Source: a plasmid
DNA: 64,000 bases
Sequence record: NZ_CP118102.1
Direction: 5' to 3' (one strand)
In this document: positions 4,729 through 25,749 of the stretch, in pieces
How positions within the stretch are numbered: position 1 is the stretch's first letter
Layout of the letters: the number at the start of each line of letters is the position of its first letter
Position numbers and translations under genes: made by a program
Notes under the pieces: generated by a model
The model's database searches: none
What the model was told of the DNA's origin: nothing
What the model saw: only the letters and a program-made list of their open reading frames with translations

Positions 4729-4756
4729 GCAGGATGCTCCGTGTGGAGCATCCTGC
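4729..4756. other. Perfect 12-bp stem / 4-nt loop hairpin immediately after the repeat array (no T-tract)
   Basis: gcaggatgctcc gtgt ggagcatcctgc. Confidence 0.6.
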
Positions 4757-4829
4757 AGTGGAGTTGGAGCCATTAGTTGAGTGTCGGGAACGATCCGACG
4801 TTGCCGTCCAATGGGTTTCGGGGAGCGAA

Positions 4830-8489: not shown

Positions 8490-8733
8490 CGACGGGAGAA
8501 GGCGAACCAGCCGGAGCGCAGGAGGAGAACCGCCCCGCGCCGGTTGATTCGTCATGCCCGAAAACGGCCGTACGTCGCGTCCTGGAGGGGCGCTGTGCCA
8601 TCCGGCAAACGGATCAGACGCCGGGCTATCGGTCAGACGGAATGAACGACAGGAGGCTGCGCGATCCGGAGGAAAAGTCCGAAACGGCGGCAAGTCAGGC
8701 CTCATACCCGCTCTACAAGGAGGAATAAGTCAG

Positions 8734-9573: not shown

Positions 9574-10561
9574 AATATGCGTGATCGGATGCGGCGGCAT
9601 CGCCTGGAGAGGGCATGGTCCGGCGTACCGGCGTTACCGGGAGGAACGGCCGGATACGGAGCTGGCTGCCTGCGTGGACGCCGATCCGGACAGGGCGGCC
9701 AAATTCGCCGAGGAGTTCGGCTTTCGCCGGGCGTACACGAGGGTGGAGGAAGCGCTGGAGACGGAGCGTCCAGACGCCGTCTGCCTGCTCGTGCCCGCTC
9801 CGTACATCGCGGAGCTGGCCGCATCGATTCTAGGCCAAGGCTACCCGCTGCTGCTGGAGAAACCTCCCGGCACGACGCGGGAAGAAGCGCTGCGCATCGC
9901 AGCAGCCGCGATTCGGCCGAACGGCGGCGAGATTCCGACACGGGTGGCGTTCAACCGCCGATATATGCCGCTGATCGGGCAGGCGGTCGACGCGCTGAAG
10001 GAGTGGCGTGAAGCCGGACGGCTGCATCATATCGCTTACGACATCAGCCGGGTTGGCCGAACCGACGACGAGGACGCGTCCGTCACCGCGATTCACGGCA
10101 TCGACGCGCTAAGAACGCTGGCAGGTTCGGATTACCGCGACATTCGCCTGAGCTATCGCCCGCTCCCGCATCTGGGTTCGCGCGTGACGAATGTCTCGCT
10201 GGAAGGCGAGTTTCAGTCCGGGGCGACGTTCCGGCTGAATTATTTTCCGGCGGCGGGGGCGGTATACGAGAGGGCGGCGATCAACTGTGAAGACGCCACG
10301 CTGCTGCTTCGGCTTCCGTTCTGGACGTCGAACGATTCGCCCGGAGGCGTTCTGCTGCAAGGCAACCGCGAGCTGAAGCATTGGGCGTCGGAAGCCGAGC
10401 CGTTCGTAACCAACGGCTTCTACGAGGAGAATGCCGGCTTCTTCGACGCCGTCCGCGCGGGCATGCAGCCGACTGGAGGAATCCGCACGGCGATTCAGTC
10501 GGTAGAGGTGGCGGAGGCGGTGCTGCGGAGAGAGACGCGTTATGCGTCGGACAACAGATAA
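9563..10561 (+). CDS. Gfo/Idh/MocA family oxidoreductase
   Basis: N-terminal Rossmann motif MAFKICVIGCGGIAWRGH and EKP motif (LLLEKPPG). Confidence 0.85.
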   Translation: MAFKICVIGCGGIAWRGHGPAYRRYREERPDTELAACVDADPDRAAKFAEEFGFRRAYTRVEEALETERPDAVCLLVPAPYIAELAASILGQGYPLLLEKPPGTTREEALRIAAAAIRPNGGEIPTRVAFNRRYMPLIGQAVDALKEWREAGRLHHIAYDISRVGRTDDEDASVTAIHGIDALRTLAGSDYRDIRLSYRPLPHLGSRVTNVSLEGEFQSGATFRLNYFPAAGAVYERAAINCEDATLLLRLPFWTSNDSPGGVLLQGNRELKHWASEAEPFVTNGFYEENAGFFDAVRAGMQPTGGIRTAIQSVEVAEAVLRRETRYASDNR

Positions 10562-10572
10562 GGAGGACAACG

Positions 10573-12804
10573 ATGAACAGCAAATCAGCGAGCTACGACG
10601 TCGTGGTCGCCGGAGGCGGACTGGCCGGCTTCAGCGCGGCGGTGGCAGCGGCCCGGGAAGGCGCGCGCACCGCGCTCGTGCAGGATCGACCCGTGCTGGG
10701 CGGCAACAGCTCGTCGGAAATTCGCGTGACGCCGCACGGCGCCGGACGGTTTCATGCCTACGCCAGAGAGACGGGAATCATTACCGAGGTGACGTGCGAG
10801 GATCGGGCGAACAACCATGAGCAGTTTCACAACAACGGCTGGACGAACAGCGTGTGGGATATGACGTTGTACGATCTGGCGATGAGAACGCCGAACTTGA
10901 CGGTGTACCTGAACACCTCCGTGCAGCAGGTCGAAAAGGATGGAGACCGGCGCATCGCCGCCGTTACCGCGAGAGTCGCGGGGGCGGAGACGGAGCTGCG
11001 GCTGCAAGGCCGCGTCTTCATCGATTGCACCGGGGACGGCACGGTCGCGGCGCTGGCGGGCAACGAGTGGCGGATGGGCAGCGAGAGCCGCGACGAATTC
11101 GGCGAGCCCCACGCTCCGGAGCGCGCAAGCGGCGACACGATGGGCAGCTCGATCCATTTCCGCGCCCGCGATACGGGGCGGCCGGCTCCGTTTCGCGCCC
11201 CCGAATGGGCCGTCGCGTATGACGATCCCGCCTTTTTCTACGCGCACAATCGCAGACCGTACGACATTCGCGCCGGTTACTGGTGGTTCGAGCTGGGTTC
11301 GCCTTGGGATACGATACACGACGCGGAGACGATCCGCCATGAGCTGACGCGCCATGTGCTGGGCGTATGGGACTGGATCAAGAACAAGGACCCGCTGACC
11401 CGGGACAAGGCGGTGAATTACGCGCTCGACTGGATCGGCCAGGTGCCGGGCAAAAGGGAAAGTCGGCGCATAATGGGCCGTTATCTGCTGACCGAGCATG
11501 ACGTGCTGGAAGGCAGAAAGTTTGCCGACGAGGTCGCCTATGGCGGGTGGTATTTGGACCTGCACATCCCCGGAGGGCTGCTCGCGCCGACAAGCGAGCT
11601 GCCGGGAGCGGCCGAGCTGGTCAGCCCCTACGGCATTCCGCTGCGCATTCTGATCGCCAAGGATATCGACAACCTGCTGATGGCGGGGCGCAACGTCAGC
11701 GTCACGCACGCGGCGCTCGGCACCGTCCGCGTCATGTCGACGACTGCCATTATGGGCCAGGCGGCAGGAACCGCCGCTGCCGTCGCGCTTAGGCGCGGCA
11801 TTCCCGTCCCGGACGTGCCGGGGACGGACGCCATTGCGGAGGTGCAGCAGACGCTGCTGCGGGCCGGCTGTTTCCTGCCGGGCGCAGCGAACGTCGATCC
11901 GCTCGACCTCGCCCGGCAGGCGGAGGTGACGGCCAGCAGCGAGGCGGAGCTTGCCGAGACGGAGCCGGGAGACGAGGGAGAGGCGCTGGACATCCGTCGC
12001 AGCCAGTGGGTGGCCGTCGCGGCGGGCGAACTGGAGCATCTGGACGTCTGGGTGGCGAATCGCGGCGACCATCCGCTCTCGTTCGAAGCCGAATTGCATC
12101 GCACCGGGCATATTTGGGATTACGACGTGCGGCAGCAAAACCGGCTGGCCGCAGCCATACTGGAAGTTCCGCCGGCCTGCGAAGGCTGGATTCGATGGCT
12201 GCCGCGGCTGGACGCGCGAAGCGGCCTTCCGGAAGAAGGCTATGTCCGGCTCGATCTGCTGAACGGCCGCGGGCTGATCTGGCGCCGCGCCAATGCCGTG
12301 CACCCCGGGCTTCCGTCGGCCAGCGAACTGGAGCCCGGCCGCCTGCGCAGCCACGACGACGGACGGACGATGAGCTTCCGCGTCAGTCCGCCCCAGCCGA
12401 TCTATTCGGCCGCGCAGACGGTCAGCGGCGTCACCCGGCCGCATCGGACCGTCAACCTGTGGCGTTCGGCGCCAGGCCTGCCGCTTCCGCAGACGCTGGA
12501 GCTGCGATGGCGCGAGACGCGGGAGATCGGGACGGTCGAGCTGACTTTTCCGGGACATCTGCTTCAGGATCACAACCGTTATCCCGCCTACTATCGCGAA
12601 CCCGACTGTCCGCGCGACTACAGAATTGAGGCTTGGACCGCCGGGGGCTGGGAGAGCGTCCACGAGACGTTCGGCAATTATCAGCGCCGCGTGTCTCATC
12701 GACTCTCCCGACCGGTACGGACGGAGCGCATCCGCATCGTCTTCCTGGCATCCAACGGAGGCGCGGAAGCGGCGGTCTACGAGATTCGCTGCTACGGGAT
12801 ATAA
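10573..12804 (+). CDS. FAD-dependent oxidoreductase (743 aa) with C-terminal discoidin/F5-8-type-C-like domain
   Basis: Likely true start ATG 10573 (MNSKSASYDVVVAGGGLAGFSAAVAAAREGARTALV) with RBS AAGGAGGA. GxGxxG FAD-binding motif. C-terminal ...RIRIVFLASNGGAEAAVYEIRCYGI is typical of a galactose-binding-like domain. The ORF-track start at 10381 sits inside the upstream gene. Confidence 0.7.
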   Translation: MNSKSASYDVVVAGGGLAGFSAAVAAAREGARTALVQDRPVLGGNSSSEIRVTPHGAGRFHAYARETGIITEVTCEDRANNHEQFHNNGWTNSVWDMTLYDLAMRTPNLTVYLNTSVQQVEKDGDRRIAAVTARVAGAETELRLQGRVFIDCTGDGTVAALAGNEWRMGSESRDEFGEPHAPERASGDTMGSSIHFRARDTGRPAPFRAPEWAVAYDDPAFFYAHNRRPYDIRAGYWWFELGSPWDTIHDAETIRHELTRHVLGVWDWIKNKDPLTRDKAVNYALDWIGQVPGKRESRRIMGRYLLTEHDVLEGRKFADEVAYGGWYLDLHIPGGLLAPTSELPGAAELVSPYGIPLRILIAKDIDNLLMAGRNVSVTHAALGTVRVMSTTAIMGQAAGTAAAVALRRGIPVPDVPGTDAIAEVQQTLLRAGCFLPGAANVDPLDLARQAEVTASSEAELAETEPGDEGEALDIRRSQWVAVAAGELEHLDVWVANRGDHPLSFEAELHRTGHIWDYDVRQQNRLAAAILEVPPACEGWIRWLPRLDARSGLPEEGYVRLDLLNGRGLIWRRANAVHPGLPSASELEPGRLRSHDDGRTMSFRVSPPQPIYSAAQTVSGVTRPHRTVNLWRSAPGLPLPQTLELRWRETREIGTVELTFPGHLLQDHNRYPAYYREPDCPRDYRIEAWTAGGWESVHETFGNYQRRVSHRLSRPVRTERIRIVFLASNGGAEAAVYEIRCYGI

Positions 12805-12944
12805 CGGGATTGCCTTTTCATAACACAAGCTTGGCATTCTCCAATAACCTACTTTACACCTCGGAAAACACTGTATTATGATGAGGCCATGCGAGAGGCC
12901 GCGCACAACGCAAGTCGAATCCATATTCAAGGAGACAATGACCG

Positions 12945-13760
12945 ATGAACGCTAAAACAAAAACGTTATTCGCCGTATTGACGCTGGTTGCGGCACTGAT
13001 CGCCGCAGGCTGCTCGAACGATAAAGGAAACGGCTCCGCACAGTCGGCCGCCGCGCAAACTTCGCTGGATAAGCTGAAGCAGAAAGGCGAGTTCGTCATC
13101 GCGACGACCGGCACGTATCCGCCGTACGCCTTCCACGAGGAGACCGGCGACCGACCGCTGACCGGCTTCGATATCGAGCTGCTGACCGAGGTGTTCGCGC
13201 GCATCGACGGCGTGAAGCTGTCGTTCAAGGAAGCGGAATGGGACGGCATGCTTGCAGGCCTGGACGCGGGACGGTTCGACTCGATCCACCAGATCGGAGT
13301 CACGGAGGAGCGCAAGGAGAAATACGATTTCGCCGACCCGTACCTGATCTCGTACCCGACGCTGATCGTGCTGGACGAGACGAAGGATATCAACAGCTTC
13401 GAGGATTTGAAGGGCAAGAAAGTGTACGGCTCCAATACGAGCATTTACGGCAAGCTGGCCGAGTCCTACGGCGCGGTGCTCGTGCCGGAGGGCGAAAGCC
13501 TGGAGCTGCTGAAGAACAAACGGGTGGACGCGATCATTTTCAACAATCTGTACTTCCTGGAGCTGAAGAAAAACCGTCCCGACCTGAACCTGAGAGCGGC
13601 CGATCAGGCCGATACGCAGGAGTTGGTGGCGCTGCCTCTCGTGAAGGGCGGAGACGGTACGGCGATCGCGGCGTTTAACGAGGCGCTGAAGAGCGTGAAG
13701 GAAGACGGCATATACGAGAAGCTGTCGCTCAAATGGTTCGGCGAAAACTTGCTGAAGTAA
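12945..13760 (+). CDS. Polar amino acid ABC transporter substrate-binding lipoprotein
   Basis: Signal peptide with lipobox LIAAGCS. Family-3 solute-binding-protein pattern (GEFVIATTGTYPPYAF..., ...WDGMLAGLDAGRFD). Confidence 0.85.
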   Translation: MNAKTKTLFAVLTLVAALIAAGCSNDKGNGSAQSAAAQTSLDKLKQKGEFVIATTGTYPPYAFHEETGDRPLTGFDIELLTEVFARIDGVKLSFKEAEWDGMLAGLDAGRFDSIHQIGVTEERKEKYDFADPYLISYPTLIVLDETKDINSFEDLKGKKVYGSNTSIYGKLAESYGAVLVPEGESLELLKNKRVDAIIFNNLYFLELKKNRPDLNLRAADQADTQELVALPLVKGGDGTAIAAFNEALKSVKEDGIYEKLSLKWFGENLLK

Positions 13761-13782
13761 GGCGGATAAAGGAGGGCTCGGC

Positions 13783-14460
13783 ATGAGCCAGGAGCGCGCG
13801 GAAAGACTGTGGGACATAGCCCTCCACTCGTTGTGGCCGCTGCTGCAGGGGATGCTGAAATACACGATTCCTCTGTCGCTCGTCTCGTTCGCGCTGGCGC
13901 TGATCTTCGCTCTGCTGATCGCGCTGGCCGGCCTGTCTCCCAGGCCGTACCTGCGGTTGCCCTCGCGGTTCTACGTCTGGATCGTCCGGGGCACGCCCAT
14001 TCTCGTTCAACTGTTCATCATTTTCTATGGACTTCCGAATGTCGGCATCGTGCTTCCCGCGTTCCCGACGGTCGTCATCGCGCTGACGGTGGCGGAAGCG
14101 GCGTACTGCTCGGAAATCATGCGCTCGACGATCAAATCTCTGCCGCAGGGGCAGTGGAAGGCGGGATATTCCCTCGGAATGTCCCCTTTCCAGGTGCTCA
14201 GACGCGTCATCTTGCCGCAGGCGGCGCGGATCAGCATTCCGCCGCTCGGCAACCAGTTCATCGGCCTGTTCAAGACGTCGTCGCTGGCCGCTCTCGTCAC
14301 CCTGCCGGACCTGTTCGGCGTGGCCAAGCAGATCGCCGCCTCGACGTTCGAGCCAATGCTGCTCTATATTATCGCGGCCGGCTACTATTTGCTGATCTGC
14401 TCCGCGCTGACGGTCGGCCAGCACCGGCTGGAGAAGAAGTTCGGCAACTATTCGCTGTAG
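13783..14460 (+). CDS. Polar amino acid ABC transporter permease (HisM/GlnP-type)
   Basis: 225 aa with multiple TM segments and EAA-like loop [42 protein letters not shown]. Confidence 0.85.
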
Positions 14461-14480
14461 CGGGAAAGGAGGGGATCGCC

Positions 14481-15275
14481 ATGTTGAACGTTACGCAGCT
14501 TCGCAAAAGCTTCGGCCGCACCGAGGTGCTTCGAGGCATCGACCTGCGCGTGGCCAAGGGGGAGACGACGATTGTGATCGGTCCTTCAGGTTCAGGCAAG
14601 TCGACGCTGCTGAGTTGCCTGAACCTGCTGGAAATTCCCGATTCCGGGGAGCTTGAGCTGGACGGCCATCGGATGAAGTTCGGGGACGGCGGCAAAAAGC
14701 GGACTCGCGAGCTGATCGGCTATCGGCAGAAAACGGGCATGGTGTTCCAAAGCCATCAGTTGTTCCCGCACCGGACGGCGCTGGAGAACGTAATCGAAGG
14801 GCTGATCGTCGTCAAGCGCTGGAATCGCAGCGACGCGCGCCGACGGGGCGAGGAGCTGCTCGCCAAAGTCGGTCTGCGCGAATTCGCCGACCGCTACCCG
14901 GCACAGCTGTCCGGCGGGCAGCAGCAGCGGGTCGGCATCGCCCGGGCGCTTGCGATGGACCCGGCGGTGCTGCTGTTCGACGAGCCGACGTCAGCGCTCG
15001 ATCCGGAGCTGGTCGGCGAAGTGCTGCGGGTGATGAAGGAACTGGCGCGCGAAGGGATGACGCTGATCGTGGCGACGCATGAAATGAACTTCGCCCGGGA
15101 GGTGGCCGACCGCGTCATCTTCATGGAAAAGGGCTTGATCGCGGACGAAGGCACGGCGGCCCATATTTTCGGCGCGAGCCGTAACGAGCGGGTGCGTCAG
15201 TTTCTCAGCCGGTTCGACGCGGCGGCGGAATTGCCGTCCGTTCCGGTTCAGGTTCAGGTTCAGGCAACTTTATAA
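14481..15275 (+). CDS. Polar amino acid ABC transporter ATP-binding protein
   Basis: Start ATG 14481 after RBS AAGGAGGGGA. Walker [10 protein letters not shown], signature [15 protein letters not shown], Walker [13 protein letters not shown]. The 488-aa ORF 13809..15275 is a frame artefact fused across the permease. Confidence 0.9.
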
Positions 15276-15299
15276 TAGAAGAAAGGCGGGTGGCAGCCG

Positions 15300-16652
15300 A
15301 TGACGGCAAACCGCAAACAATTGAAACTGGGCTTTATGGTGCACGGCGTCGGGTCGAGCGCGAGCGCATGGCGGCATCCGGCGGTCGAGTCGGACGCGAG
15401 CGTCGCGTTCGACTTTTACCGGCGGCAGGCGCAGATCGCGGAGGCCGGCAAGCTGGACCTCGTCTTTATCGCGGACGTGCTTTATATTAACGAGCGATCG
15501 ACGCCGCATTTCGTCAACCATCTGGAGCCGCTGACGCTTCTGGCCGCGCTGGGCGCCGTTACTTCGCGGATCGGCCTCGTCGGCACGCTGTCGACGACGT
15601 ACAGCGAACCCTACGCCGGAGCGCGCCAGCTCGCTTCGATCGACCGGATCAGCGGAGGACGGGCGGGCTGGAACGTCGTGACGACCGGCATGCGCGGAGC
15701 GGCGCTCAACTTCGGCAAAGCGGAGGACGCGCACCCGGATCACGATACGCGCTACCGGATCGCGGGCGAATATTTGGAGGCGGCGCGCGGACTGTGGGAT
15801 TCGTGGGAGGACGACGCGTTCGTAAGGGACAAGGAGAGCGGCGTCTTTTACGACCCGGACAAGCTGCATACGCTCGACTACCGGGGCGAGTTCTTCTCGG
15901 TTCGCGGTCCGCTGAACATCGCGCGCTCCAAGCAGGGGCATCCGGTCATCTTCCAGGCGGGCTCCTCGGAGGACGGTCAGAACTTCGCCGCCCGCCATGC
16001 CGACGCGGTCATGACCGGCATTACCGAGCCGGAGGAGGCGCGGCGTTATTATCGGGAGCTGAAGCGCAAAGCCGCTGCAGCGGGACGAAATCCGGACGAT
16101 CTGCTCGTTATGCCGAGCGCCGCCGTCGTCGTAGGCCGAACGAGGGAAGAGGCGGAGGAGAAGTACGAGGCGACCGCTTCGCTCCTGTCGATCGAGGAGG
16201 CGATGCGGTATTTCGCGCAGTTTTTCGACTTTCACGATTTTACGCAGTATCCGCTCGACGGTCCGTTTCCCGAGCTGGGCGACTTGGGGCGCAGCAGCTA
16301 TCAGAGCTTTACGGACAGGGTCAAGCGCGAGGCGCGGGACAAGGGGCTGACGCTGCGCCAGACGATTCGCAGGTTCGCCGCGCCGAAGCCGCGTTTTCTC
16401 GGTTCGGCAGCCGAAGTGGCGGACGGCTTGCAGGAATGGTTCGAGACGGGGTCGGCCGACGGATTTATATTGCACAGCGACGTGCCGGGCACGTTGTCCG
16501 ACTTCGCGGAGCTTGTCGTGCCGGTGCTGCAAGAGCGCGGTTTGTTCCGCCGCGAGTACGAGGCCGATACGCTGCGGGGCATGCTCGGCTTGCCCGTGCC
16601 GCGCAATCGCTATGAGGCCGCGCGGGCCGCACGCTTCAAGGACGGCGGGTGA
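15300..16652 (+). CDS. LLM-class flavin-dependent monooxygenase (NtaA/SnaA/DszA family)
   Basis: 450 aa. MTANRKQLKLGFMVHGVGSSASAWRHP... is a typical bacterial-luciferase-like N-terminus. Confidence 0.8.
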   Translation: MTANRKQLKLGFMVHGVGSSASAWRHPAVESDASVAFDFYRRQAQIAEAGKLDLVFIADVLYINERSTPHFVNHLEPLTLLAALGAVTSRIGLVGTLSTTYSEPYAGARQLASIDRISGGRAGWNVVTTGMRGAALNFGKAEDAHPDHDTRYRIAGEYLEAARGLWDSWEDDAFVRDKESGVFYDPDKLHTLDYRGEFFSVRGPLNIARSKQGHPVIFQAGSSEDGQNFAARHADAVMTGITEPEEARRYYRELKRKAAAAGRNPDDLLVMPSAAVVVGRTREEAEEKYEATASLLSIEEAMRYFAQFFDFHDFTQYPLDGPFPELGDLGRSSYQSFTDRVKREARDKGLTLRQTIRRFAAPKPRFLGSAAEVADGLQEWFETGSADGFILHSDVPGTLSDFAELVVPVLQERGLFRREYEADTLRGMLGLPVPRNRYEAARAARFKDGG

Positions 16653-17865
16653 ACAGCCAGAACAGCAGGGCGGCGGCGCTGACAGCCGCGCCGAGCAGAC
16701 AGACGCCGGTCCAGCCTGCGGCATGGTAGGTCATCGTGGAGGCGATCGAACCGGCCGCGCTGCCGAACGAGTAGAACATCATGTAGCCGGCGGTCAGCCT
16801 GCTCCGGGCTTCCGGCCGCACGGCCAAGATCAGGCTCTGGTTGGTCACATGCACCGCTTGCACGGCCGCGTCGAGCAGGACGATGCCGGCGAGCAGCGCG
16901 AACAGCGAATGCGGAGTCATTCCGATCGGCAGCCAGGAGCCGAGCAGCAGAAGCAGCGCCGCTCCGGTCGTTCGCTGTCCGAGGCCGCGATCGGCCCATC
17001 TGCCGGCGCGCGCGGCCGCCATCGCTCCGGCGGCTCCCGCCAGTCCGAATGCGCCGATCGCCGTATGCGACAGCGAGAACGGCGGAGCGCTGAGAGGCAG
17101 CGCCAGCGAAGTCCACAAAATGCTGAATGCGGCGAAAATCAGCATGGCAAGGACGGCGCGAACACGCAATATCCGCTCCTGCACGAACAGTGCAAGCATC
17201 GATCGAAGCAGTCCGAGGTAGGCGACGGATTCGCTCGCAGGCTCGCGAAGAGGCAGCGTCCGAAGCAGGGCGACGGCCATAACGGACGTCAGCGCCGCCG
17301 ATGCGAAGTACACGGCCCGCCAGCCGCCCATATCGGCCAATAAGCCCGCGAACGACCGGGCGAGTAAAATGCCGATGCCGATGCCGCTTGTCACCAAGCC
17401 TACGATGCGTCCCCTCTCGGCAGGGGAAGCCAAAGCGGCCGCGTATGCGACCAGCGTCTGCGTCACGACGGCGAGTCCTCCGACCGCAGCCATGCCGACG
17501 AGCAGCGTCGCGCTCGAAGATGAGAAGCCGACCGCCAGCAGCGCGGCGACGGACAGCAGCATCTGCGCCCCGATCAGCTTGCGGCGGTTGAGCAGATCGC
17601 CCAGCGGCACGAGCAGCAGCAGCCCGAGCGCATAGCAGATTTGCGTTACTGTAACGACGATGCCGATCGTGGAGCGGGCGATGCCGAATTCTCCCGCGAT
17701 CGAATCCAACAGCGGCTGAGCATAGTACACATTGGCGACTGCCAGCCCCGCGGCAGCGGCAAACAAATAGGCCGCACGCCGCGAAAGATAGGCCGGCTGC
17801 GCGGCTCCTGCTTCAAGATGACCGACTTCTGCCGTACTCCCCGAATGCGAAACGCTATTTTTCAT
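16636..17865 (-). CDS. MFS transporter
   Basis: 409 aa with about 12 predicted TM helices. Convergent 17-bp overlap with the monooxygenase gene. Divergent from the TetR gene. Confidence 0.8.
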   Translation of the reverse strand: MKNSVSHSGSTAEVGHLEAGAAQPAYLSRRAAYLFAAAAGLAVANVYYAQPLLDSIAGEFGIARSTIGIVVTVTQICYALGLLLLVPLGDLLNRRKLIGAQMLLSVAALLAVGFSSSSATLLVGMAAVGGLAVVTQTLVAYAAALASPAERGRIVGLVTSGIGIGILLARSFAGLLADMGGWRAVYFASAALTSVMAVALLRTLPLREPASESVAYLGLLRSMLALFVQERILRVRAVLAMLIFAAFSILWTSLALPLSAPPFSLSHTAIGAFGLAGAAGAMAAARAGRWADRGLGQRTTGAALLLLLGSWLPIGMTPHSLFALLAGIVLLDAAVQAVHVTNQSLILAVRPEARSRLTAGYMMFYSFGSAAGSIASTMTYHAAGWTGVCLLGAAVSAAALLFWLFTRRP

Positions 17866-17978
17866 ATCTCCATTCCTCCTGTTTCTTCTGCATTTCTATT
17901 CTGTACCGAACAGTAAATAATAGAGCGTCACAAATATAGCTTTAAAGAATCGAATCTGTCAACTCCTGCGGTAATCCT

Positions 17979-18007
17979 TTGACAATCAACTTTCCAAGGC
18001 GTATATT
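17979..18007 (+). promoter_or_regulatory. Sigma-A-type promoter for the TetR gene
   Basis: TTGACA (17979-17984), 17-nt spacer, TATATT (18002-18007); about 35 nt upstream of ATG 18043. Confidence 0.5.
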
Positions 18008-18042
18008 TTAATATACCGTTCGATACGAAATGAGGGAGAAGT

Positions 18043-18681
18043 ATGGCGCGTACGAGGGAGTTCGACGAGGAGCAGGCGCTCGATGCGGCGATGCGGCTGT
18101 TTTGGGAGAAGGGGTTCGAGGGGACGTCTTTAAGCGATCTGACGGCTGGCATGGGCATACAGCGCCCGAGCCTGTACGCGGCTTTCGGCGACAAGAAGGA
18201 GCTGTTCGAAGCCGCGCTCCGCAAGTATACGGGCGACCATGCCGCATACGTCCGCGCCTCTCTGCAAAATCGCCCTTCTATTATAGAAGCTTTCCGCAGC
18301 CTGTTTCGGAGCACGACGGCAACGGTGGACGAAGAGGGGGCGAGCCGGGGATGCTTCTGCATCAACTCGATGGTGGAGCTGGCGCCTCATGACGAGAAAT
18401 TCGCGGTTTTGACCAGGGAGCATCAGATGTATATCGCCGTTCTCTTCCAGGAAGCAATCGAGCGTGGGATTCGTTCCGGCGAGCTGGCCCCCGGCATTCA
18501 TGCCAAAGGTTTGGCCCAAGCGCTGGCCGTCTCGTGGATCGGACTGACGGTGCTGGCGAAGTCCCGTCCGCCCCGGTCGTTTCTCGATCAGTCGGTGGAG
18601 GAAACGGTCGCGCTGCTGCGGCGGGGCGAATCGGATCGTCCATCATTCGGAAATTGTGACGGGGCCGACATAAATTTATGA
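18043..18681 (+). CDS. TetR/AcrR-family transcriptional regulator
   Basis: N-terminal HTH EEQALDAAMRLFWEKGFEGTSLSDLTAGMGIQRPSLYAAFGDKKELF. Divergent from the MFS transporter (classic repressor/efflux pair). Confidence 0.85.
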   Translation: MARTREFDEEQALDAAMRLFWEKGFEGTSLSDLTAGMGIQRPSLYAAFGDKKELFEAALRKYTGDHAAYVRASLQNRPSIIEAFRSLFRSTTATVDEEGASRGCFCINSMVELAPHDEKFAVLTREHQMYIAVLFQEAIERGIRSGELAPGIHAKGLAQALAVSWIGLTVLAKSRPPRSFLDQSVEETVALLRRGESDRPSFGNCDGADINL

Positions 18682-18771
18682 CAAAATGATGGTGTCTCCG
18701 CGAAAGCCGCGAATGATCGCGCAAGTTATGTTAGCATAGGGGGAGGATAATCTGGAAGGAGCGGATAAGCC

Positions 18772-19191
18772 GTGCAGCGAGTTCAAAACAGTCGTCTGAG
18801 TCTTGAAATGCCCACCAAATCGTTTATCCATGTCTTATTCGATACGATAAAGATCGGAATTATCAAATCCAACTTGATCGCGATGTTCGCCGGCCTGTGC
18901 ATGGCTCTGTACGTAGAAGGAATCCCGTTCTTCGACAAGATCGGCACGATCGTCCTGGCCGGGATCGGATCTTTCCTCGTCATCGGTTCGGCGGGCGCGT
19001 TCAACAATTTGTACGACCGGGACATCGACGCCATTATGGACAGAACGAAGAAGCGGCCGACCGTGACCGGATACGTCGGCACGAGGAGCGGCCTGTTCAT
19101 CGCCATCTGGACCGCCGTATTCGGCCTGTTCGCCTTGTACGTTGCGTCTCCGTTGGCGGCGCTGTTCGGCTTTCTCGGCCTGTTCCTGTAG
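18772..19191 (+). pseudogene. ctaB: Protoheme IX farnesyltransferase (heme O synthase), N-terminal ~139 codons only, truncated at the GC-content break
   Basis: UbiA-family signature GSAGAFNNLYDRDIDAIMDRTKKRPTV. The ORF ends ...GFLGLFL then TAG at 19192, where a full-length CtaB would continue for roughly 160 more residues. GC content drops sharply just downstream. Confidence 0.6.
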
Positions 19192-19222
19192 GGGTACCGC
19201 CAACATTTTAACGATAATATAC

Positions 19223-19259
19223 GCTAAGCCTTCGGATGTACCTGGCTTAGCGTTTTTTC
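19223..19259 (+). terminator. Rho-independent terminator
   Basis: gctaagcc ttcggatgtacct ggcttagc followed by gttttttct. Confidence 0.5.
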
Positions 19260-19375
19260 TTACTCTAAGCCCAATAGTCCGGGCTACACCGCCCGGACTA
19301 CCGATCACTCACCTTCCTGTTGTTTCAGCGGTCGTAATGAGTTAGCGGACATCAAGTGTATGCTTTGAAAACACC

Positions 19376-19407
19376 AAATGACCGCTAATCTTAATTAGCG
19401 GTCATTT
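19376..19407. promoter_or_regulatory. Perfect 14-bp inverted repeat with 4-bp spacer (candidate operator or recombination site), plus a third half-site at 19341-19352
   Basis: aaatgaccgctaat ctta attagcggtcattt; upstream copy ttagcggacatc. Confidence 0.4.
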
Positions 19408-19429
19408 AATATTAGGAGATCATTCCTTC

Positions 19430-19606
19430 ATGATGGTTCGTAGAGACGATTTGCGCAACCGAGGAAACACTCGTGCAGCAAATGAATCGGCAACGAATCG
19501 CGCTATAGGAATCGTTTCTGCGCGATACTTCACGAAGCATATTTTTTATTTTAATATCAATTCGATGATGTTGCTTGTTTTGCCACCGGATGACGAACTT
19601 TTTTGA
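19430..19606 (+). CDS. Small hypothetical ORF (58 aa, Arg-rich); doubtful
   Basis: RBS AGGAGA 11 nt upstream of ATG. MMVRRDDLRNRGNTRAANESATNR... Its 3' end overlaps the converging gene 19546..19890 by 60 bp. Confidence 0.2.
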   Translation: MMVRRDDLRNRGNTRAANESATNRAIGIVSARYFTKHIFYFNINSMMLLVLPPDDELF

Positions 19607-19890
19607 CGCATTGTCATCCTCCCTGCACCTGCCATTTCCACGAGAATTTGCCCGATGGCGTTTGTGGTATCAATCACCATGTTTTTGATTGCTTTAGGTT
19701 CCAGCGTCACCCCGTTGTCGATGGCTGTGCCATCGATCACACTTGGCAATACATTGCCGTTTGCACTGTCTTTGACGACCATGTTAATATTTTTTTCTTC
19801 GTCGCTGCCATTGTTGATCGCCACCGAAAGTGTGGTTTCTCCGTTTTTGCGAGACATCGTGAACGTGGTTTTTGAACTGTTTTCAAGCAT
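19546..19890 (-). CDS. Hypothetical protein (114 aa, Asn/Ser/Thr-rich)
   Basis: ORF with coding-like composition. No family recognised from sequence alone. Confidence 0.45.
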   Translation of the reverse strand: MLENSSKTTFTMSRKNGETTLSVAINNGSDEEKNINMVVKDSANGNVLPSVIDGTAIDNGVTLEPKAIKNMVIDTTNAIGQILVEMAGAGRMTMRQKSSSSGGKTSNIIELILK

Positions 19891-19904
19891 GGGTAAACGC
19901 CTCC

Positions 19905-20273
19905 TTAAGCGATTGAATTATTTTGGTTTAACATATCAAAAATGCGCTGTTGTTTATTTTTTTCATCATCGAGCAGTTTGGAAATAATCCCTTCCAAATT
20001 CGTCGTCCCCGACGTGCCGCAGGTACAGCCGCTTGTTGATCCGCTAGAAGGCTGACAGTTACAGCAGGTACGGCATTTGCAAAACAAAAGCAATAAGGCT
20101 AAAAGCACGGAATTGTCGCTAATTTGAATTTGATTGCCAACGGTGAAGTTGTTGCCATTGGAGACGGTGTTTGCCGAGTTGTTTGCCGAGCTCGCTAACC
20201 CGTTTGCCGTGCTCACTAAGGCGCTGTTGTAGTCAAAGGTGTTGTTGGATTCACTGGTATTCGTGGATTCCAC
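19905..20273 (-). CDS. Hypothetical Asn/Ser-rich protein with Cys-rich core
   Basis: 122 aa. Core CKCRTCCNCQPSSGSTSGCTCGTSG. Divergent from the Ubl operon. Confidence 0.45.
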   Translation of the reverse strand: MESTNTSESNNTFDYNSALVSTANGLASSANNSANTVSNGNNFTVGNQIQISDNSVLLALLLLFCKCRTCCNCQPSSGSTSGCTCGTSGTTNLEGIISKLLDDEKNKQQRIFDMLNQNNSIA

Positions 20274-20407
20274 AACACATCGAAGAGCATATAAACCACC
20301 ATGGAGAGGAAGAGAACACTTTTAAACTCCCATTACCGGAACTCATTCAATTTGCAGAACTCCTTGGCAAAGAAGAAAGTGACCGGTACGTAGCCAATTT
20401 CAATAGG

Positions 20408-20812
20408 ATGTTGAATCGTAGTTGCGATTATCTAGATTTCAGTATGGAAGGGATAGTTGTAAACGCTAGTATTCAAATTACCTTGACTGGCTTCTATGGT
20501 ATTTTATCTCCCTTTCTTAAAGTGTTGTTAGAAATTAAACAAATGGTGCAGCAAGTTTTTCGTGATAGCAAGTCACAGATAACTAACAGCTCTCAGAATG
20601 TAGTTTTACTGAAGGAGCTTAATCAAAGGGTTGGATCCGTTCCTGAAGTATCCATCACTGACAGCACAACTGTTGTGTTTGCCCAGATCATGAAGTTCCT
20701 CGGTGGGAACTCATCTGAGAGCAGTGATAACTTAACCTTCAGTGATATGAGAAACATTTTAACCCATGTACTTGACCAGGTGACTATAAATAGGAAGGAT
20801 GATGTGGCATGA
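20408..20812 (+). CDS. Candidate ubiquitin-like protein precursor (first gene of the Ubl-E2-JAB-E1 operon); start uncertain
   Basis: 134 aa from the first in-frame ATG. No good RBS. The frame is open back to 20171 without a canonical start. Internal ...FAQIMKFLGG at residues 92-101, followed by a 33-aa tail. Stop overlaps the next start (ATGA). Confidence 0.4.
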   Translation: MLNRSCDYLDFSMEGIVVNASIQITLTGFYGILSPFLKVLLEIKQMVQQVFRDSKSQITNSSQNVVLLKELNQRVGSVPEVSITDSTTVVFAQIMKFLGGNSSESSDNLTFSDMRNILTHVLDQVTINRKDDVA

Positions 20813-21522
20813 GCCAGCAGCATTTAGTAGAGAAAAACAATACAGGAAATGAAATGGTTATTCGGATCCGCGACCATTATGCACTTCCCATTGTTGAGGA
20901 GTATATTGACGGTGTTAAAGTCGGTGAAGGTATTTATACACATGAAGCGGTTGCCAGTGCTATTCTTCAGTCTCTAGAAACTGGATTAGTACGAACACCT
21001 GTCATGCCAAGAGGTGCTCTCCATTTCGTTGAAATAACGAAGTCCCGTCAGTTTATCTTTATGGAGGTGTCTCCTCAAAACAGGAAGGCTTATTATCACG
21101 AAGCCGTAATTGAGGAAGTTCCTTTTCCAAGATTGGTATTCGGCTTTGAAATTCATGAGCGTGATAAAAATTGGGCAATCAGTCAAGTATACCTTGCAGC
21201 TTTGGAGGACCAAATCATTCCCAGTGAGGAATCGATGGTCTTTTTTTATCCCTACACCAACGTTAAGGAGAATTTTCAAGTTTGCTGGGGTAGTCAGCAG
21301 TTACCGGATATTGAACGGTTATCGCAGCTATCCACTTTTCCAGAACTGTTCTTTAACTCTCCAAATTCGGACTGTTACTACTATAGTTCTAATAACAGCG
21401 ACATGAATTATCGCGAGCTGGTGACCAAGATTAAGGGAGAAAGATTTCCGCAAGAGTATCTTAAGGCGACTAATCTTACACTGCAGGCATGGTTCAATCG
21501 GATCGTTGGTTTTGAAGTGTAG
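20809..21522 (+). CDS. E2-like (UBC-fold) protein candidate
   Basis: 237 aa. FFYPYTNVKENFQVCWGS resembles the E2 HPN...C catalytic loop, with a variant YPYTN and Cys 7 residues after the Asn. Translationally coupled on both sides. Confidence 0.5.
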   Translation: MSQQHLVEKNNTGNEMVIRIRDHYALPIVEEYIDGVKVGEGIYTHEAVASAILQSLETGLVRTPVMPRGALHFVEITKSRQFIFMEVSPQNRKAYYHEAVIEEVPFPRLVFGFEIHERDKNWAISQVYLAALEDQIIPSEESMVFFYPYTNVKENFQVCWGSQQLPDIERLSQLSTFPELFFNSPNSDCYYYSSNNSDMNYRELVTKIKGERFPQEYLKATNLTLQAWFNRIVGFEV

Positions 21523-21559
21523 AACGAGATAAATATTAGTTAAATTAGGAGGAATAAAA

Positions 21560-22960
21560 ATGTCTAACAACAATTATGGTCAAGGTGATCTATTCTCTTA
21601 TTTTGGTGATGATTTCGCTGAAGCATTAGAATATGAGGAGAAGAATAAACTACAGCATACTTCTGACCAATCTATTGAAGAAGATCATAAAGATAACCCT
21701 CCATCAGAGAGTCTTACTTCTGATCCAGCAGCTGAAAAAAGTCAAGGTGAAAGCCGTCCGACGAAGCTAATCTCACTGGAATCGCGCAGAAGAGTATCAG
21801 ATTCTTTCTCTAATGATGGTTGTCCTGATGCATGTTCTGATAAAGAATTAGATGACGATGAAAAAGATGCTTTAGAGGATAAGGCAAGCGATGAACAAGA
21901 AGCGGACAAGCGTGAGCTCAGTGGGGAAAGCGGAAACACTTCTGTGATCAAATCAGATGAAAAAACACCAGTTACCGCTAAGAAGGAAATAGAAAAACCA
22001 GAACTGAATCATGCTACCTTTATTTGCTACTCAGGGCTAAGCATTTCTATAACAAAATTCTTCTCTGAGGATAAGCTAGCTGGTCTTGAGCTTGAGGATG
22101 TTCGGAAACGCCTGGAAAAAGATTACCCAGAGCTTTCAAAACAGCGGACAAAAATGGATTGGGACAAGAAGAAAAATATAATTGTGCCTATGGTCACCGG
22201 TGGAAAAAAAGGGGCCCGTTTTACAAATGGCACTCGTGGTTTTTATTCATCTTCTCAAGAACTCATTGAGCATCAGGAGCCAATATCCTACCTTGCTGCA
22301 CAAGATGGGTACTATGAAATACGAGAGAACCTGATAGGAGTATTTATAGGGAGAACGGCTGCTGAAGAGCTGATTGAATGGGAAGGATTCTCTGTATTTA
22401 ATTCAGTCTTACCCAAACATCTAGATCGTGAGCCTTGCAGACCTGGATTTAAATACAAATTACCTAAGATACCCAAGCAACTCTTTGCTCAACTGGTCTC
22501 CTTTTTTATGGACTATACAGATTACGATGTGGAGGTTATGGGTGTTTTCTACTACGATATTGATCGCCAGCAGTTTATTTTGGATGTTCCTTATCAATCT
22601 GTCACCAAATATTCAGTTAACCCTTGGTACTCTGTTTATCCCGGACATGTAGTTAAGGTCGCTGAAATCCATTCACATAACACGATGCGTGCAGATTTTA
22701 GTTCGATTGATGATGAAGATGAAGTAGGGACCATGTTATACGGAGTAGTTGGTAAGATCAAAAAAGGACATGCAACAGACGTGTTTTTTGATGTCAGGAC
22801 TCGTGCAGGAATGGCAGGAAAGTTCATACCTATCGATCCCAAGGTATTTATCGAAGGAGAATTAACGAGTAACCGGCTAAATAATCATATCGATTATGTC
22901 GCCTATCCTAAAGACTGGGTTAAAAAGGTGACAATCATAGGAGGCAATAGAAATGATTAA
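21560..22960 (+). CDS. JAB/JAMM (MPN+) metalloprotease with long acidic low-complexity N-terminal region
   Basis: 466 aa. Strong RBS AGGAGGAATAAAA before ATG. Exact JAMM motif EIHSHNTMRADFSSIDD (HxHx7Sx2D). N-terminal ~150 residues are D/E/S/K-rich. Confidence 0.8.
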   Translation: MSNNNYGQGDLFSYFGDDFAEALEYEEKNKLQHTSDQSIEEDHKDNPPSESLTSDPAAEKSQGESRPTKLISLESRRRVSDSFSNDGCPDACSDKELDDDEKDALEDKASDEQEADKRELSGESGNTSVIKSDEKTPVTAKKEIEKPELNHATFICYSGLSISITKFFSEDKLAGLELEDVRKRLEKDYPELSKQRTKMDWDKKKNIIVPMVTGGKKGARFTNGTRGFYSSSQELIEHQEPISYLAAQDGYYEIRENLIGVFIGRTAAEELIEWEGFSVFNSVLPKHLDREPCRPGFKYKLPKIPKQLFAQLVSFFMDYTDYDVEVMGVFYYDIDRQQFILDVPYQSVTKYSVNPWYSVYPGHVVKVAEIHSHNTMRADFSSIDDEDEVGTMLYGVVGKIKKGHATDVFFDVRTRAGMAGKFIPIDPKVFIEGELTSNRLNNHIDYVAYPKDWVKKVTIIGGNRND

Positions 22961-23786
22961 TCTACTTTCACTCACTCCAAACTACACATCACTTTATTAT
23001 TATATAGTCTTGATTGGTGCAGGAGGGAATGGTGGATATACGGTGCAACGTCTAACTAAGATGATGAGTGCATTTAATAATGTTCCATCCTTTCTTATGA
23101 TTGCTGATCCGGATACTGTAGAGGAAAAGAACATTCTGCGGCAGCCTTTTATCCCGTCTGATATTGGGCTCAAGAAATCCGAGGTATTAGCTAAGCGATA
23201 TGGCGGTACATATGGATTAAAGATCGGTTCTTTCTCAGATTCATATATTGAGTCGGTAGAACAAATAGAAAAACTTTTTTCTCTGACGGATTACCGGCAT
23301 AAGCCTGGACAATACATTCAAAAGGTACTTATAGGTGCTGTAGATAATGATTTTTCAAGAAACATCATGAATGATTACTTCAATCGGACGGATGATATCA
23401 TTTATATTGATGCCGGCATCGAAGGGGTTTTCATGCCAAGTGAGCAGCCACAAGATCAGTGGTCTACCGAGGAACTAAAGGACCACATGGATAGTGGCTA
23501 TTCCGGTCAGATTGTTGTAGGACTAAAAAAAGACGGGAAGGAGATCTTACCGCCTCTAAATGTGGTTTACCCTATAAATGCGGAAGATGCTATCCCTCCG
23601 TCTCACAACTGTGGGTTAGAGCCTTATCAACCACAACGGATGATCGCCAATGAATATGCTGCCATGCATATATCTACAGTTCTTAATGAGCTTTTTAGCT
23701 CAAATTCGATTCATATTCATATATCGAACTTCTCAGCAAGGAATGGTAGCTGCCGTCCTATTTATTTTGAAGAGGTACAGGAATAG
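22953..23786 (+). CDS. E1-like (ThiF/MoeB/UBA family) adenylyltransferase
   Basis: 277 aa. IVLIGAGGNGGYTVQRL...IADPDTVEEKNILRQPF (glycine-rich nucleotide loop plus DxDxVexsNLnRQ motif), ...GLKKSEVLAKR, ...GAVDNDFSRN. Start overlaps the JAB gene stop. Confidence 0.85.
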   Translation: MINLLSLTPNYTSLYYYIVLIGAGGNGGYTVQRLTKMMSAFNNVPSFLMIADPDTVEEKNILRQPFIPSDIGLKKSEVLAKRYGGTYGLKIGSFSDSYIESVEQIEKLFSLTDYRHKPGQYIQKVLIGAVDNDFSRNIMNDYFNRTDDIIYIDAGIEGVFMPSEQPQDQWSTEELKDHMDSGYSGQIVVGLKKDGKEILPPLNVVYPINAEDAIPPSHNCGLEPYQPQRMIANEYAAMHISTVLNELFSSNSIHIHISNFSARNGSCRPIYFEEVQE

Positions 23787-23805: not shown

Positions 23806-23838
23806 AAAAAGGGGGCATAATAATTACCCCCTTTTTTC
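23806..23838 (+). terminator. Rho-independent terminator after the E1 gene
   Basis: aaaaaggggg cataataatta ccccc tttttt. Confidence 0.7.
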
Positions 23839-24156: not shown

Positions 24157-24954
24157 GTGCTTCCCACACTTCCACCAGAGATGTACGCTGTGGACCAGTA
24201 TGACCACTATCATATTAACTTTTCAGGGGGTGCCGACTCACTTGCGCTCGCCTTGATTATGAAATATGGATACAAAATACCATCCGAAAAGATGGTTCTT
24301 GTCCATATGCGAGTTGATGGAAATCCGGAAGAGAAGCAGCAACTCTTTGATTGGCCGCAGACCGATGAATACTTGCGATACGCAAGTGAAAAGCTGGATA
24401 TTCCATTGGTCGTTATTTGGGGTGACAAGTCACTTGAAGAACGTATTCGAGATCGCAAAATGTTTCCGGATAAAAGCTGCAGATTCTGCACTTCTTATAC
24501 GAAGCGAGACGTTTACGCAAAGTGGGTTCGTCAGTTCGATGACTGTAAAATTCTAATGCTTACTGGGGAACGCTCAGAAGAATCATCTGATCGAGCGAAG
24601 GAGCCAATATTTGAGTATCATCCTGCCCATGCAACTAAAAGAAAGAATCGTGAAGTGCATTGGTTCCGACCGATCAAGAATATGCTTAAATCCCAGGTTA
24701 AGCAGCTGGCCGCCAATTACAGTATTGAACTACACCCTTGTTATCAATGGGTTTCACGTTGCAGCTGTCGTTTCTGTATCTTTAATACCGCTTCGGAAAT
24801 GGAGCGTGTCGCTCAGCTCTACCCTGATGATTGGGAGTACTTAAAACGTATGGAGTTACATCTTGGCCATACCATGAAAACCAAAAGGGGTAAACCAGTC
24901 CTTCTTTCTGAATTTGTGAATGAATCTCAAGTCACCATATCAGACTTCATCTGA
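24157..24954 (+). CDS. PAPS-reductase-family PP-loop ATPase (phosphoadenosine phosphosulfate reductase-like)
   Basis: PP-loop SGGADS near the N-terminus. C-terminal Cys cluster CYQWVSRCSCRFC. GTG 24157 or ATG 24181 as start. Confidence 0.7.
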   Translation: MLPTLPPEMYAVDQYDHYHINFSGGADSLALALIMKYGYKIPSEKMVLVHMRVDGNPEEKQQLFDWPQTDEYLRYASEKLDIPLVVIWGDKSLEERIRDRKMFPDKSCRFCTSYTKRDVYAKWVRQFDDCKILMLTGERSEESSDRAKEPIFEYHPAHATKRKNREVHWFRPIKNMLKSQVKQLAANYSIELHPCYQWVSRCSCRFCIFNTASEMERVAQLYPDDWEYLKRMELHLGHTMKTKRGKPVLLSEFVNESQVTISDFI

Positions 24955-24993: not shown

Positions 24994-25374
24994 ATGCAGA
25001 CAATTTTCAAAGAAAATCATAAACAACGTATGAACCCGGAGCTTATTAACCAGATGGAATCTGTAGTTAAAAGCGTTATAGTTAACGAAAAATTTCATGC
25101 AGACTTTTATTTACATGACCTTAAAGTAATGGACTCTTCCAATGGAGGAATATTTGCCTGGTATGTCTATGATTGCGGTACTCATTTAATTCAACTGAGT
25201 AATTATGATGAAGTAATCGCATTTCAAAAGGAATGGATCCAAAGCATGCCTAGCATCCGTGATAAGCATTGGAGAGATTGTTTATATGTTTGTGATACCG
25301 CCAAAAGTGAACTCAAAATCGTTAAGAGTTTTAGCGAGGGTAACTTGGTAGAGCAGCTCAAATTAGTCGTCTGA
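24994..25374 (+). CDS. Hypothetical protein (126 aa)
   Basis: RBS AAGGAGG before ATG. No family recognised. Confidence 0.5.
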   Translation: MQTIFKENHKQRMNPELINQMESVVKSVIVNEKFHADFYLHDLKVMDSSNGGIFAWYVYDCGTHLIQLSNYDEVIAFQKEWIQSMPSIRDKHWRDCLYVCDTAKSELKIVKSFSEGNLVEQLKLVV

Positions 25375-25503: not shown

Positions 25504-25749
25504 ATGTCGCAACAATTCCACAACCAAGGTTTTATTATTATGATTGAACAGGACGCAGCAGAAAAGGATTACACAGCATATATACCAGCACTTCGACTTG
25601 GAGCCAAAGGTCATACTCTTGAAGAAGTCCGTGACAATGCTCGAGACCTAATTCTTATGGAAGTCGAGGCAATGCAAAAAAGTGGAAAATCCATTCCATC
25701 TGACGACAACTGTATTGTAGAAACACTTTCAGTTTCCCTCACAGTGTAA
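25504..25749 (+). CDS. HicB-like / UPF0150-family antitoxin-fold protein (no HicA partner seen)
   Basis: 81 aa. ...YTAYIPALRLGAKGHTLEEVRDNARDLI... is a typical HicB N-domain pattern. RBS GGAAGGAG. Confidence 0.55.
   Translation: MSQQFHNQGFIIMIEQDAAEKDYTAYIPALRLGAKGHTLEEVRDNARDLILMEVEAMQKSGKSIPSDDNCIVETLSVSLTV

Follow-up and report, generated by a model that had tools for sequence, protein, structure and literature searches.

Operons of the PRTRC (6d-like) type, which group E1, E2 and JAB genes, are known from a prediction of 2006, and plasmids, integrative and conjugative elements and large phages commonly carry them. PRTRC, as represented by NCBIfam models TIGR03734-03742, is probably the same as operon class 6d. 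In that class, a small ubiquitin-like protein (Ubl) bearing a C-terminal Gly and a helical protein that diverges rapidly occur together with an E2 that has a conserved His C-terminal to its Cys, an E1, and a JAB protein that has one additional domain at its N-terminus (Iyer, Burroughs & Aravind 2006). Type II Bil corresponds to the CEHH/6C class and Bub to the 6E class (PMC10557695, PMC11601603). Here we analyse a stretch of 64,000 nucleotides from plasmid record NZ_CP118102.1 (the window), in which four consecutive plus-strand open reading frames (ORFs) lie between 20171 and 23786. The original prediction read them as a Bil-type antiphage operon in the order Ubl, E2, JAB and E1. We think it likely that the locus is what is left of a Ubl conjugation cassette carried by a plasmid, of the broad PRTRC-like (Prok-E2_D) group, and not a Bil system. 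The description that fits this cassette best is that of class 6d and the NCBIfam PRTRC models.

Several features place the cassette near PRTRC and class 6d. The top-scoring families are PRTRC_B for the E2, PRTRC_A for the JAB protein and PRTRC_ThiF for the E1; the E2 exceeds the Prok-E2_D cut-off, the JAB has an extra N-terminal domain, a rapidly diverging accessory protein is encoded upstream of the E2, and the genes are carried on mobile elements. Unlike PRTRC, however, the window proteins score below the curated cut-offs of these best matches (55.7 vs 131.45 bits for PRTRC_B, 22.6 vs 101.8 bits for PRTRC_A over gene 3 residues 324-423, and 68.2 vs 144.75 bits for PRTRC_ThiF). The Ubl is fused ahead of the JAB, in contrast to the small separate PRTRC_C. 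A viral-locus ParB query (E 1e-5) found no ParB in 84 loci from genome collections and metagenome assemblies, nearly all of Bacillota, and ParB had no match among the ten window ORFs between 19905 and 26561 that were scanned against family libraries. Unlike class 6d, the E2 of the window family has no conserved His C-terminal to the Cys, and in neither description does the Ubl have the long acidic N-terminal extension, with its conserved motif, that is seen here. The suggestion that this might be a divergent, possibly undescribed subtype has been borne out, in that the subtype is divergent and uncharacterised.

The E2, E1 and JAB genes and a predicted Ubl domain

Gene 2 (20809-21522, plus strand, 237 aa) scores 50.6 bits against Pfam Prok-E2_D (PF14460; cut-off 25). 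Motif conservation was assessed in sets of 100-120 homologues, and all motifs that had been quoted for genes 2-4 were found in the sequence. The E2 loop YPYTNVKENFQVCWG lies at positions conserved across homologues and has the form Pro-x-x-Asn-x7-Cys-x-Gly. P148, N151, C159 and G161 are 91-99% conserved among 101 non-identical E2 homologues (C159 99%, N151 97%), and N151 stands eight residues upstream of C159, the Asn-to-Cys spacing seen in UBC enzymes. From this conservation, Cys159 (21283-21285, plus strand) is the predicted catalytic residue. No His reaches 80% anywhere among the same 101 homologues, and neither the E2 sequence nor its profile matched anything in the PDB. Judged by its sequence, gene 2 is a Prok-E2_D E2 with an intact catalytic loop.

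Gene 4 (22953-23786, plus strand, 277 aa) encodes a PRTRC_ThiF-like E1 adenylating enzyme with a single ThiF domain, which scores 31.1 bits against Pfam ThiF (cut-off 28.1). The motifs GAGGNGG and DPDTVEEKNILRQ are present at conserved positions, as had been claimed. In a 23-sequence alignment (A5), G22, G24, G27, D52, D54, E57, N60, Q64, D131, R136 and C220 are invariant, and G25 and R63 are about 90% conserved across 121 sequences; the GxGxxG loop, the DxD..N..RQ motif and the Mg-binding Asp are therefore all accounted for, as is a near-invariant Cys220 (23610-23612, plus strand). As a single sequence the E1 matched nothing significant in the PDB. Its profile aligned to one adenylation domain of UBA5, ThiF and others, with the chains matched including UBA5 (1e-13), BubCD (6e-8) and Cap2 (4e-6) as well as UBA6, MccB, SAE2 and ThiF. 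These motifs and matches identify gene 4 as a small ThiF-type E1 with the full set of nucleotide-binding and adenylation motifs.

Gene 3 (21560-22960, plus strand, 466 aa) ends in a JAB/JAMM metallopeptidase (22214-22957, plus strand), made up of a JAB-N region (residues 219-320) and a catalytic core (residues 321-466). E325, H371, H373, S381 and D384 show no variation across 34 aligned homologues and form the E ... HxH-x7-S-x2-D metal site; the JAMM motif HSHNTMRADFSSIDD reported earlier lies at these conserved positions. Gene 3 alone scores only 15 bits against Pfam Prok-JAB, below the cut-off of 25. Many of its homologues carry a precomputed PF14464 match, and three are named 'PRTRC genetic system protein A' by JGI. 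A profile of the JAB protein found no match among PDB chains.

The original prediction gave the JAB protein a long, acidic, disordered N-terminus. An acidic linker is indeed present, low in complexity and poorly conserved (residues 18-145), but the same stretch of protein also holds what we predict to be the Ubl. The alignment of gene 3 homologues has a conserved block of ~70 residues (about 146-218; 21995-22213, plus strand) ahead of the JAB part, which ends in an invariant K217-G218. An AlphaFold (AF2) model of residues 140-222 has a predicted local distance difference test score (pLDDT) of 82 and a bb-a-a-bb topology, and we assign it to the ubiquitin-like beta-grasp fold. Foldseek returned nothing significant for this model, and the same segment matched no NCBIfam or Pfam family, PRTRC_C included.

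Natural gene fission provides a second line of evidence. Six loci (two each in Brevibacillus and Paenibacillus, one each in Ammoniphilus and Rossellomorea) pair a short JAB gene (~218 aa) with a separate gene for the N-terminal half. The separate Ubl genes end GTSKGGV*, GTSKGGF*, GGAKGNG*, GTSKGAL*, GTSKGAALL* and GTTKGYQVWE*, where the asterisk is the stop, so that each terminates 1-6 residues past the Lys-Gly. The JAB start overlaps the Ubl stop or lies within a few bases of it, and the short JAB genes begin at the equivalent of gene 3 residue ~222.

A library search gave the third. A Ubl-only profile retrieved 345 cluster representatives among 1.84 billion, and in 141 of these the match reaches the end of the domain. 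Among the 141, the Gly is the very last residue in 18 (...KKG-COOH), a tail of 1-10 residues follows it in 33, 12 have tails of intermediate length, and the other 78, fusions like the window protein, extend by over 150 residues. This pattern of free Gly, short tail or fusion is the hallmark of a conjugatable Ubl, the Gly of which is free or has to be exposed by a peptidase. In Bil, up to nine residues follow the conserved Gly of the Ubl and are taken off by the JAB deubiquitinase (PMC10557695). Taken with this precedent, the tail pattern leads us to interpret gene 3 as a proUbl-JAB fusion, with a predicted processing site between G218 and A219. Fold prediction, gene fission and library search, three independent lines, thus converge on the front half of gene 3 as the seat of the putative modifier. 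An iterated Ubl hidden Markov model (HMM) drifted onto an upstream repeat-like segment in Clostridial proteins, and our statements on domain boundaries therefore draw on two sources only, the library search and the alignment of Bacillales-type sequences.

Four of the ParB-linked, PRTRC-like loci from IMG/VR show a related arrangement. Two genes upstream of the E2, they encode a protein (L114 7883-8380, L108 7854-8381, L112 4389-5168, L118 7622-8155) that begins with a Ubl-like segment ending ...VVKQAGTKG, followed by a ~100-aa domain ending ...GF, which is another 'Ubl-KG-something' architecture. Comparison of the Firmicutes Ubl domain with this viral PRTRC-like Ubl (...AGTKG) by hhalign was not significant, which leaves homology of the Firmicutes Ubl to PRTRC-type Ubls unproven.

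Five of the loci with a split Ubl (L054, L058, L071, L080 and L084) also have long E2 genes, of 347-456 aa. These E2s have an apparently helical N-terminal extension of ~200 aa, and some have an acidic C-terminal tail; both are absent from the 237-aa E2 of the window. Directly downstream of the cassette, L071 has a gene (10860-11762) that we take from its translation to encode an ArdC-like antirestriction protein with an HExxH-type motif, L084 presumably an NAD-dependent DNA ligase (12058-14097, likewise read from the translation), and L080 what its translation leads us to regard as a DnaX-like clamp-loader subunit (11592-13685). If so read, these genes add to the DNA-metabolism surroundings of the cassette.

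Gene 1 and the state of this copy

Gene 1 had been taken for the Ubl, as a small protein starting at 20408 with an internal Gly-Gly. The Gly-Gly is present, but neither the Ubl role nor a small protein starting at 20408 was borne out. The gene 4 protein has residue-for-residue copies on ten other public contigs, and in five of these assemblies a gene of 243 aa precedes the E2. In blastn comparisons, identity of the window to the intact loci begins exactly at 20271, so the first 63 codons have been lost and what is left (20271-20812, plus strand) encodes residues 64-243. Across the 13 aligned members of the family, only D19 and K25 are invariant, both within the deleted part. The Gly-Gly is not conserved, the segment that contains it is missing from half of the family, and the predicted structure has no beta-grasp, the outcome for gene 1 that the original prediction had itself named as refuting. 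The family is small and confined to Bacillales loci, and full-length gene 1, like the 113-aa protein p113 and other ORFs upstream, matched no family in NCBIfam or Pfam. Gene 1 is a lineage-specific accessory gene, beheaded at a junction with Tn3-family DNA.

On the other side of that junction, 19191-20270 consists of fragments of a Tn3-family element (1080 bp, two pieces, 100% identity). They match plasmids of Paenibacillus sp. Cedars and Brevibacillus, in which they flank a Tn3 transposase and a tyrosine recombinase. The junction at 20270/20271 truncates both adjoining genes at their 5' ends: gene 1 and, on the minus strand, an ORF (19905-20273) that retains the last 122 aa of a hypothetical protein of 556 aa. 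An independent Logan assembly carries the same junction, which is thus no artefact of the window. The 122-aa product is rich in Asn, Ser and Thr and has a Cys cluster (CKCRTCCNC...CTCG); its 556-aa parent adjoins Tn3-family transposase genes in other plasmids.

The rest of the operon matches its earlier description in most respects. The ATGA overlap of the gene 1 stop and gene 2 start is present at 20809-20812, and gene 3 runs 8 nt into gene 4, from 22953. The picture of four coupled genes was not borne out, as 37 nt separate genes 2 and 3. Past gene 4, the anticipated terminator is found at 23806-23838 (plus strand), as a stem-loop AAAAAGGGGG-N11-CCCCCTTTTTT with a T tract, which resembles an intrinsic terminator (dG -19.1 kcal/mol, z = -2.9). 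A consensus scan overlooked this hairpin because of its 11-nt loop.

From about 19.2 kb onward the window is Paenibacillus urinalis-type plasmid DNA, and P. urinalis plasmid CP118110 matches 27000-51000 at 100% identity. The locus had been placed in an AT-rich accessory island; its 38% GC is in fact the native composition of the plasmid, and the odd part is the 63% GC stretch at 1-19190. That stretch carries ABC transporter, luciferase-like, MFS, TetR and truncated UbiA-family genes. No plasmid matches it closely; its hits, at ~75%, are to proteobacterial or actinobacterial genes. The point at which it joins the 38% GC Paenibacillus plasmid DNA recurs in a Logan assembly (SRR23080378).

The fate of the cassette in close relatives bears on whether this copy works. 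Sister plasmids NZ_CP118105.1 and NZ_CP118110.1 have intact gene 1, E2 and Ubl-JAB genes, and in both a ~13-kb Tn3-family transposon (zwf, gnd, pgi) splits the E1 gene at the position of window 23052-23057. The transposon flanks overlap by 6 bp, resembling a target duplication; the window E1 is uninterrupted. Independent disruptions in close relatives, with Tn3 insertions in different cassette genes of different P. urinalis plasmids, suggest that the cassette is dispensable in this lineage. With its 5' region lost, the window cassette may be silent or decaying, and we give slightly less than even weight to the reading that it no longer functions, being a relic that has no promoter, whose first gene is cut short and which is drifting to loss. 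Both genes at the junction are headless, the operon partners p113, GerE, YdjM and a DinG/YoaA-type helicase are gone from upstream, and an upstream scan gave no promoter-like site above background; read-through or internal promoters are possible, however. Genes 2-4 are intact and match their counterparts in undisrupted loci at 100% identity, so any inactivation was recent. Counter to the relic reading, too, the E2-JAB-E1 core might work without gene 1, as this core is the only part kept across all of the loci described below.

Genomic context and competing readings

Homologues of gene 3 are found on plasmids of P. urinalis, P. lautus, Thermobacillus composti, P. rhizovicinus, P. sonchi, P. peoriae and Rossellomorea. 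Scans yielded 80 genome loci and 50 IMG/VR loci, ~130 in all, which lie on plasmids, other mobile elements and large viral contigs, and local HMM searches recovered the triad of E2, JAB and E1 in essentially every locus long enough to show it. Paenibacillaceae loci with a full-length (~245-aa) gene 1 share the order helicase, YdjM, (SNF2), GerE, p113, gene 1, E2, Ubl-JAB, E1, and further downstream PAPS-reductase-like, p126 and HicB-like genes. The loci with split genes retain the core from gene 1 to E1. In the Clostridial group the order is Ubl-JAB, E1 and then, after 3-6 kb, E2.

Neighbouring genes are of a consistent kind. In Bacillales they include the DinG/YoaA helicase, YdjM and GerE, with a Y-family polymerase near three of eight loci. 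Clostridial loci have a DUF6094 methyltransferase (49/69 loci), Rad52 (40/69), an SbcC-like ATPase (29/69), SSB (21/69) and a DnaN of their own (16/69), along with primase-type domains, Ku and YqaJ. Some of the viral loci, L114 among them, encode SSB, ParB, a Ubl-containing protein, an E2, a short JAB and a ThiF protein that scores 133.7 against the PRTRC_ThiF cut-off of 144.75 bits; such loci are a bridge to canonical PRTRC. We interpret the neighbourhood as a replication, recombination and repair/SOS region of mobile elements, in which we saw no defence-island signature. The proposed antiphage role found no support here either.

Downstream of the window cassette lies a conserved Bacillales trio: a PAPS_reduct/PP-loop gene (24157-24954, plus strand), 370 bp past the cassette and kept downstream of E1 in 15 Bacillales loci, then genes for a 126-aa protein (24994-25374) and a HicB-like 81-aa protein (25504-25749). 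The trio is nearly absent from loci of the Clostridial group.

A Bil-type antiphage system, in which gene 1 is a Ubl conjugated to phage proteins during infection, is in our judgement highly unlikely. Its appeal is easily seen. The cassette has the same enzyme classes as BilABCD in the same order, E2-JAB-E1; the predicted Ubl has a conserved Gly and a removable C-terminal extension, which the JAB would be expected to cleave, as in Bil (PMC10557695); and its long disordered N-terminal tail has counterparts in some Bil Ubls (PMC10557695, PMC11601603). Helix-turn-helix, HicB-like and recombinase genes lie nearby, and the PAPS-reductase-like protein matches the PADLOC defence models SspD (1.6e-15) and BrxP (1.7e-7). 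The components themselves differ, however. The cassette has no standalone Ubl gene, and gene 1 is truncated, not a beta-grasp protein and without a conserved Gly. BilB has a catalytic Cys with a highly conserved adjacent His (PMC10557695), whereas no conserved His follows the E2 Cys here and there is no CEHH signature. BilD has IAD, AAD and CYS domains, in contrast to the single-domain, 277-aa E1 of the window, which lacks the IAD and CYS. Moreover, the family occurs on plasmids and viral contigs, within replication and recombination modules and not in defence islands.

Defence models and solved structures were also searched. PADLOC gave no match for the E2, a chance-level restriction-enzyme match for the JAB (E 0.03) and weak Cap2-type matches for the E1. 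The E2 and JAB profiles matched no solved chain, and nothing labelled Bil was among the 60 E1-profile matches listed; for these PADLOC and structural nulls, the Bil content of the libraries is unconfirmed. Bub (6E/DUF6527) and Type II CBASS Cap2/Cap3 are likewise E1/E2/JAB machineries with variously fused components. Their fusions are Ubl-E2, JAB-E1 and E2-E1, whereas that of the window family is Ubl-JAB, and the window cassette has neither the DUF6527 protease nor the CD-NTase. The likeness of the E1 to BubCD and Cap2 is at the general level of the E1 superfamily, as UBA5 scores better than either.

The least probable reading, which we regard as remote, is that the system is a sulfur carrier. 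The E1 would thiocarboxylate the Ubl, which would then feed the PAPS-reductase/PP-loop (SspD/DndC-like) enzyme for DNA or RNA thiolation, in a manner resembling TtuB/TtuC/TtuA or the ThiS/MoaD-JAB-E1-PAPS-reductase neighbourhoods. Neighbourhoods of the latter type, with a PAPS reductase, were described by Iyer et al. 2006; the E1 is small, ThiF-like and single-domain, and the PP-loop gene follows closely in 15 Bacillales loci. In the window, though, that gene lies beyond the terminator hairpin, and it was found in only one Clostridial-group locus and in no viral locus. An E2, by contrast, with its highly conserved Cys and Asn, is present in every locus long enough, and a pure sulfur relay needs none. 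No rhodanese, cysteine desulfurase, thiamine, molybdopterin or cysteine biosynthesis genes were seen nearby, apart from the PAPS-reductase-like gene of the Bacillales subset, and a thiamine or molybdopterin context was rejected for want of genes of either pathway.

Proposed chemistry and possible roles

The anatomy of the E2, proUbl-JAB and E1 cassette is well supported. By analogy, its conjugation chemistry might run as follows. The JAB would cut its own or a sister polypeptide after Gly218, releasing a modifier of ~24 kDa (residues 1-218). The E1 would adenylate the exposed Gly and probably form a thioester on Cys220, from which the Ubl would pass to Cys159 of the E2 and then onto lysines of target proteins. 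The released JAB could also reverse conjugation. A Ubl made as a fusion that needs cleavage after its C-terminal Gly recalls eukaryotic ubiquitin precursors, as a functional analogy only. The E2/JAB/E1 conjugation cassette of the original prediction stands as far as its intact catalytic motifs go, but with the Ubl in gene 3 and not in gene 1. Such a cassette would appear to serve the mobile element, through replication, recombination, DNA-damage tolerance or establishment in the host, and not to act as an antiphage system of the host.

Several points weigh against a PRTRC-like conjugation cassette. In the literature searched on PRTRC, Prok-E2 and this family we found no experiment or functional study, and conjugation is therefore something that we infer. 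The Ubl could stay fused as a regulatory or docking domain, and not be cleaved at G218. The three PRTRC scores fall well below the curated cut-offs, ParB is missing from the 84 loci, and the E2 fold is read from sequence. Finally, conservation of the neighbourhood may partly reflect the shared ancestry of a few element families.

The N-terminus of gene 3 offers a hint as to where the modifier might act. Residues 8-17 (21581-21610, plus strand) form a conserved short linear motif, QGDLFSYFGD. The Paenibacillaceae consensus is QxDLFSYFGG; other Bacillales have variants such as QLSLF, QIDLF, QMDLF and QFSLF, and the Clostridial variants include NDLFADFPFP. The pattern [DSN][LM]F occurs within the first 35 residues of 57/83 homologues and of 17/792 control ORFs, and the stricter Q.[DSN][LM]F in 17/83 and 0/792, respectively; the Gln is absent from most homologues, and the core of the motif is DLF[ST][YF]F. 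A pure chance match was ruled out by these frequencies.

The bacterial clamp-binding motif is QL[SD]LF, and the PIP box is Qxx[LIM]xx[FY][FY]. The gene 3 motif resembles both, and from this likeness we hypothesize a link to the replisome. The acidic and aromatic ...DF.PF stretches of Clostridial proteins, for their part, recall the C-terminal tail of SSB. In an unlikely but specific scenario, the N-terminal Qx[DS]LF[ST][YF]F of the modifier would bind the beta sliding clamp, or a hub such as SSB partners, and the E1-E2-JAB cascade would tag clamp-associated proteins for the element. Through such tagging the element could turn replication, translesion synthesis or recombination to its own advantage. 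The scenario draws on circumstantial evidence, namely that element-encoded DnaN, SSB, Rad52, Y-family polymerase and DinG/YoaA genes adjoin the cassette. It would also be like the ubiquitylation and SUMOylation of PCNA, in that the machinery may be directed to a clamp by a motif of the Qxx[LM]..[FY][FY] type. Unlike the eukaryotic systems, to which there is no sequence relationship beyond fold, the motif would sit on the modifier itself.

Alternatively, the motif may be a docking peptide within the system and not a clamp motif, since in a small viral subgroup an M[EN]DLF motif is found on the E2 instead of the Ubl protein. The E2 N-termini of L108, L112, L114, L116 and L118 read M[EN/T]DLF[GSN]N[PS]H.

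If replisome targeting were true, it would be a prokaryotic, plasmid-borne parallel to PCNA ubiquitylation. For annotation, the lesson is that a ~460-aa 'JAB domain-containing protein' can conceal a Ubl, and that analogy of gene order alone mis-assigns it. More broadly, the analysis gives the PRTRC-like group a testable anatomy in Firmicutes: a modifier, a predicted Lys-Gly processing site, a frequent proUbl-protease fusion and a conserved N-terminal motif that may serve in docking. The context of mobile elements and DNA metabolism argues against treating every bacterial Ubl operon as an antiphage system.

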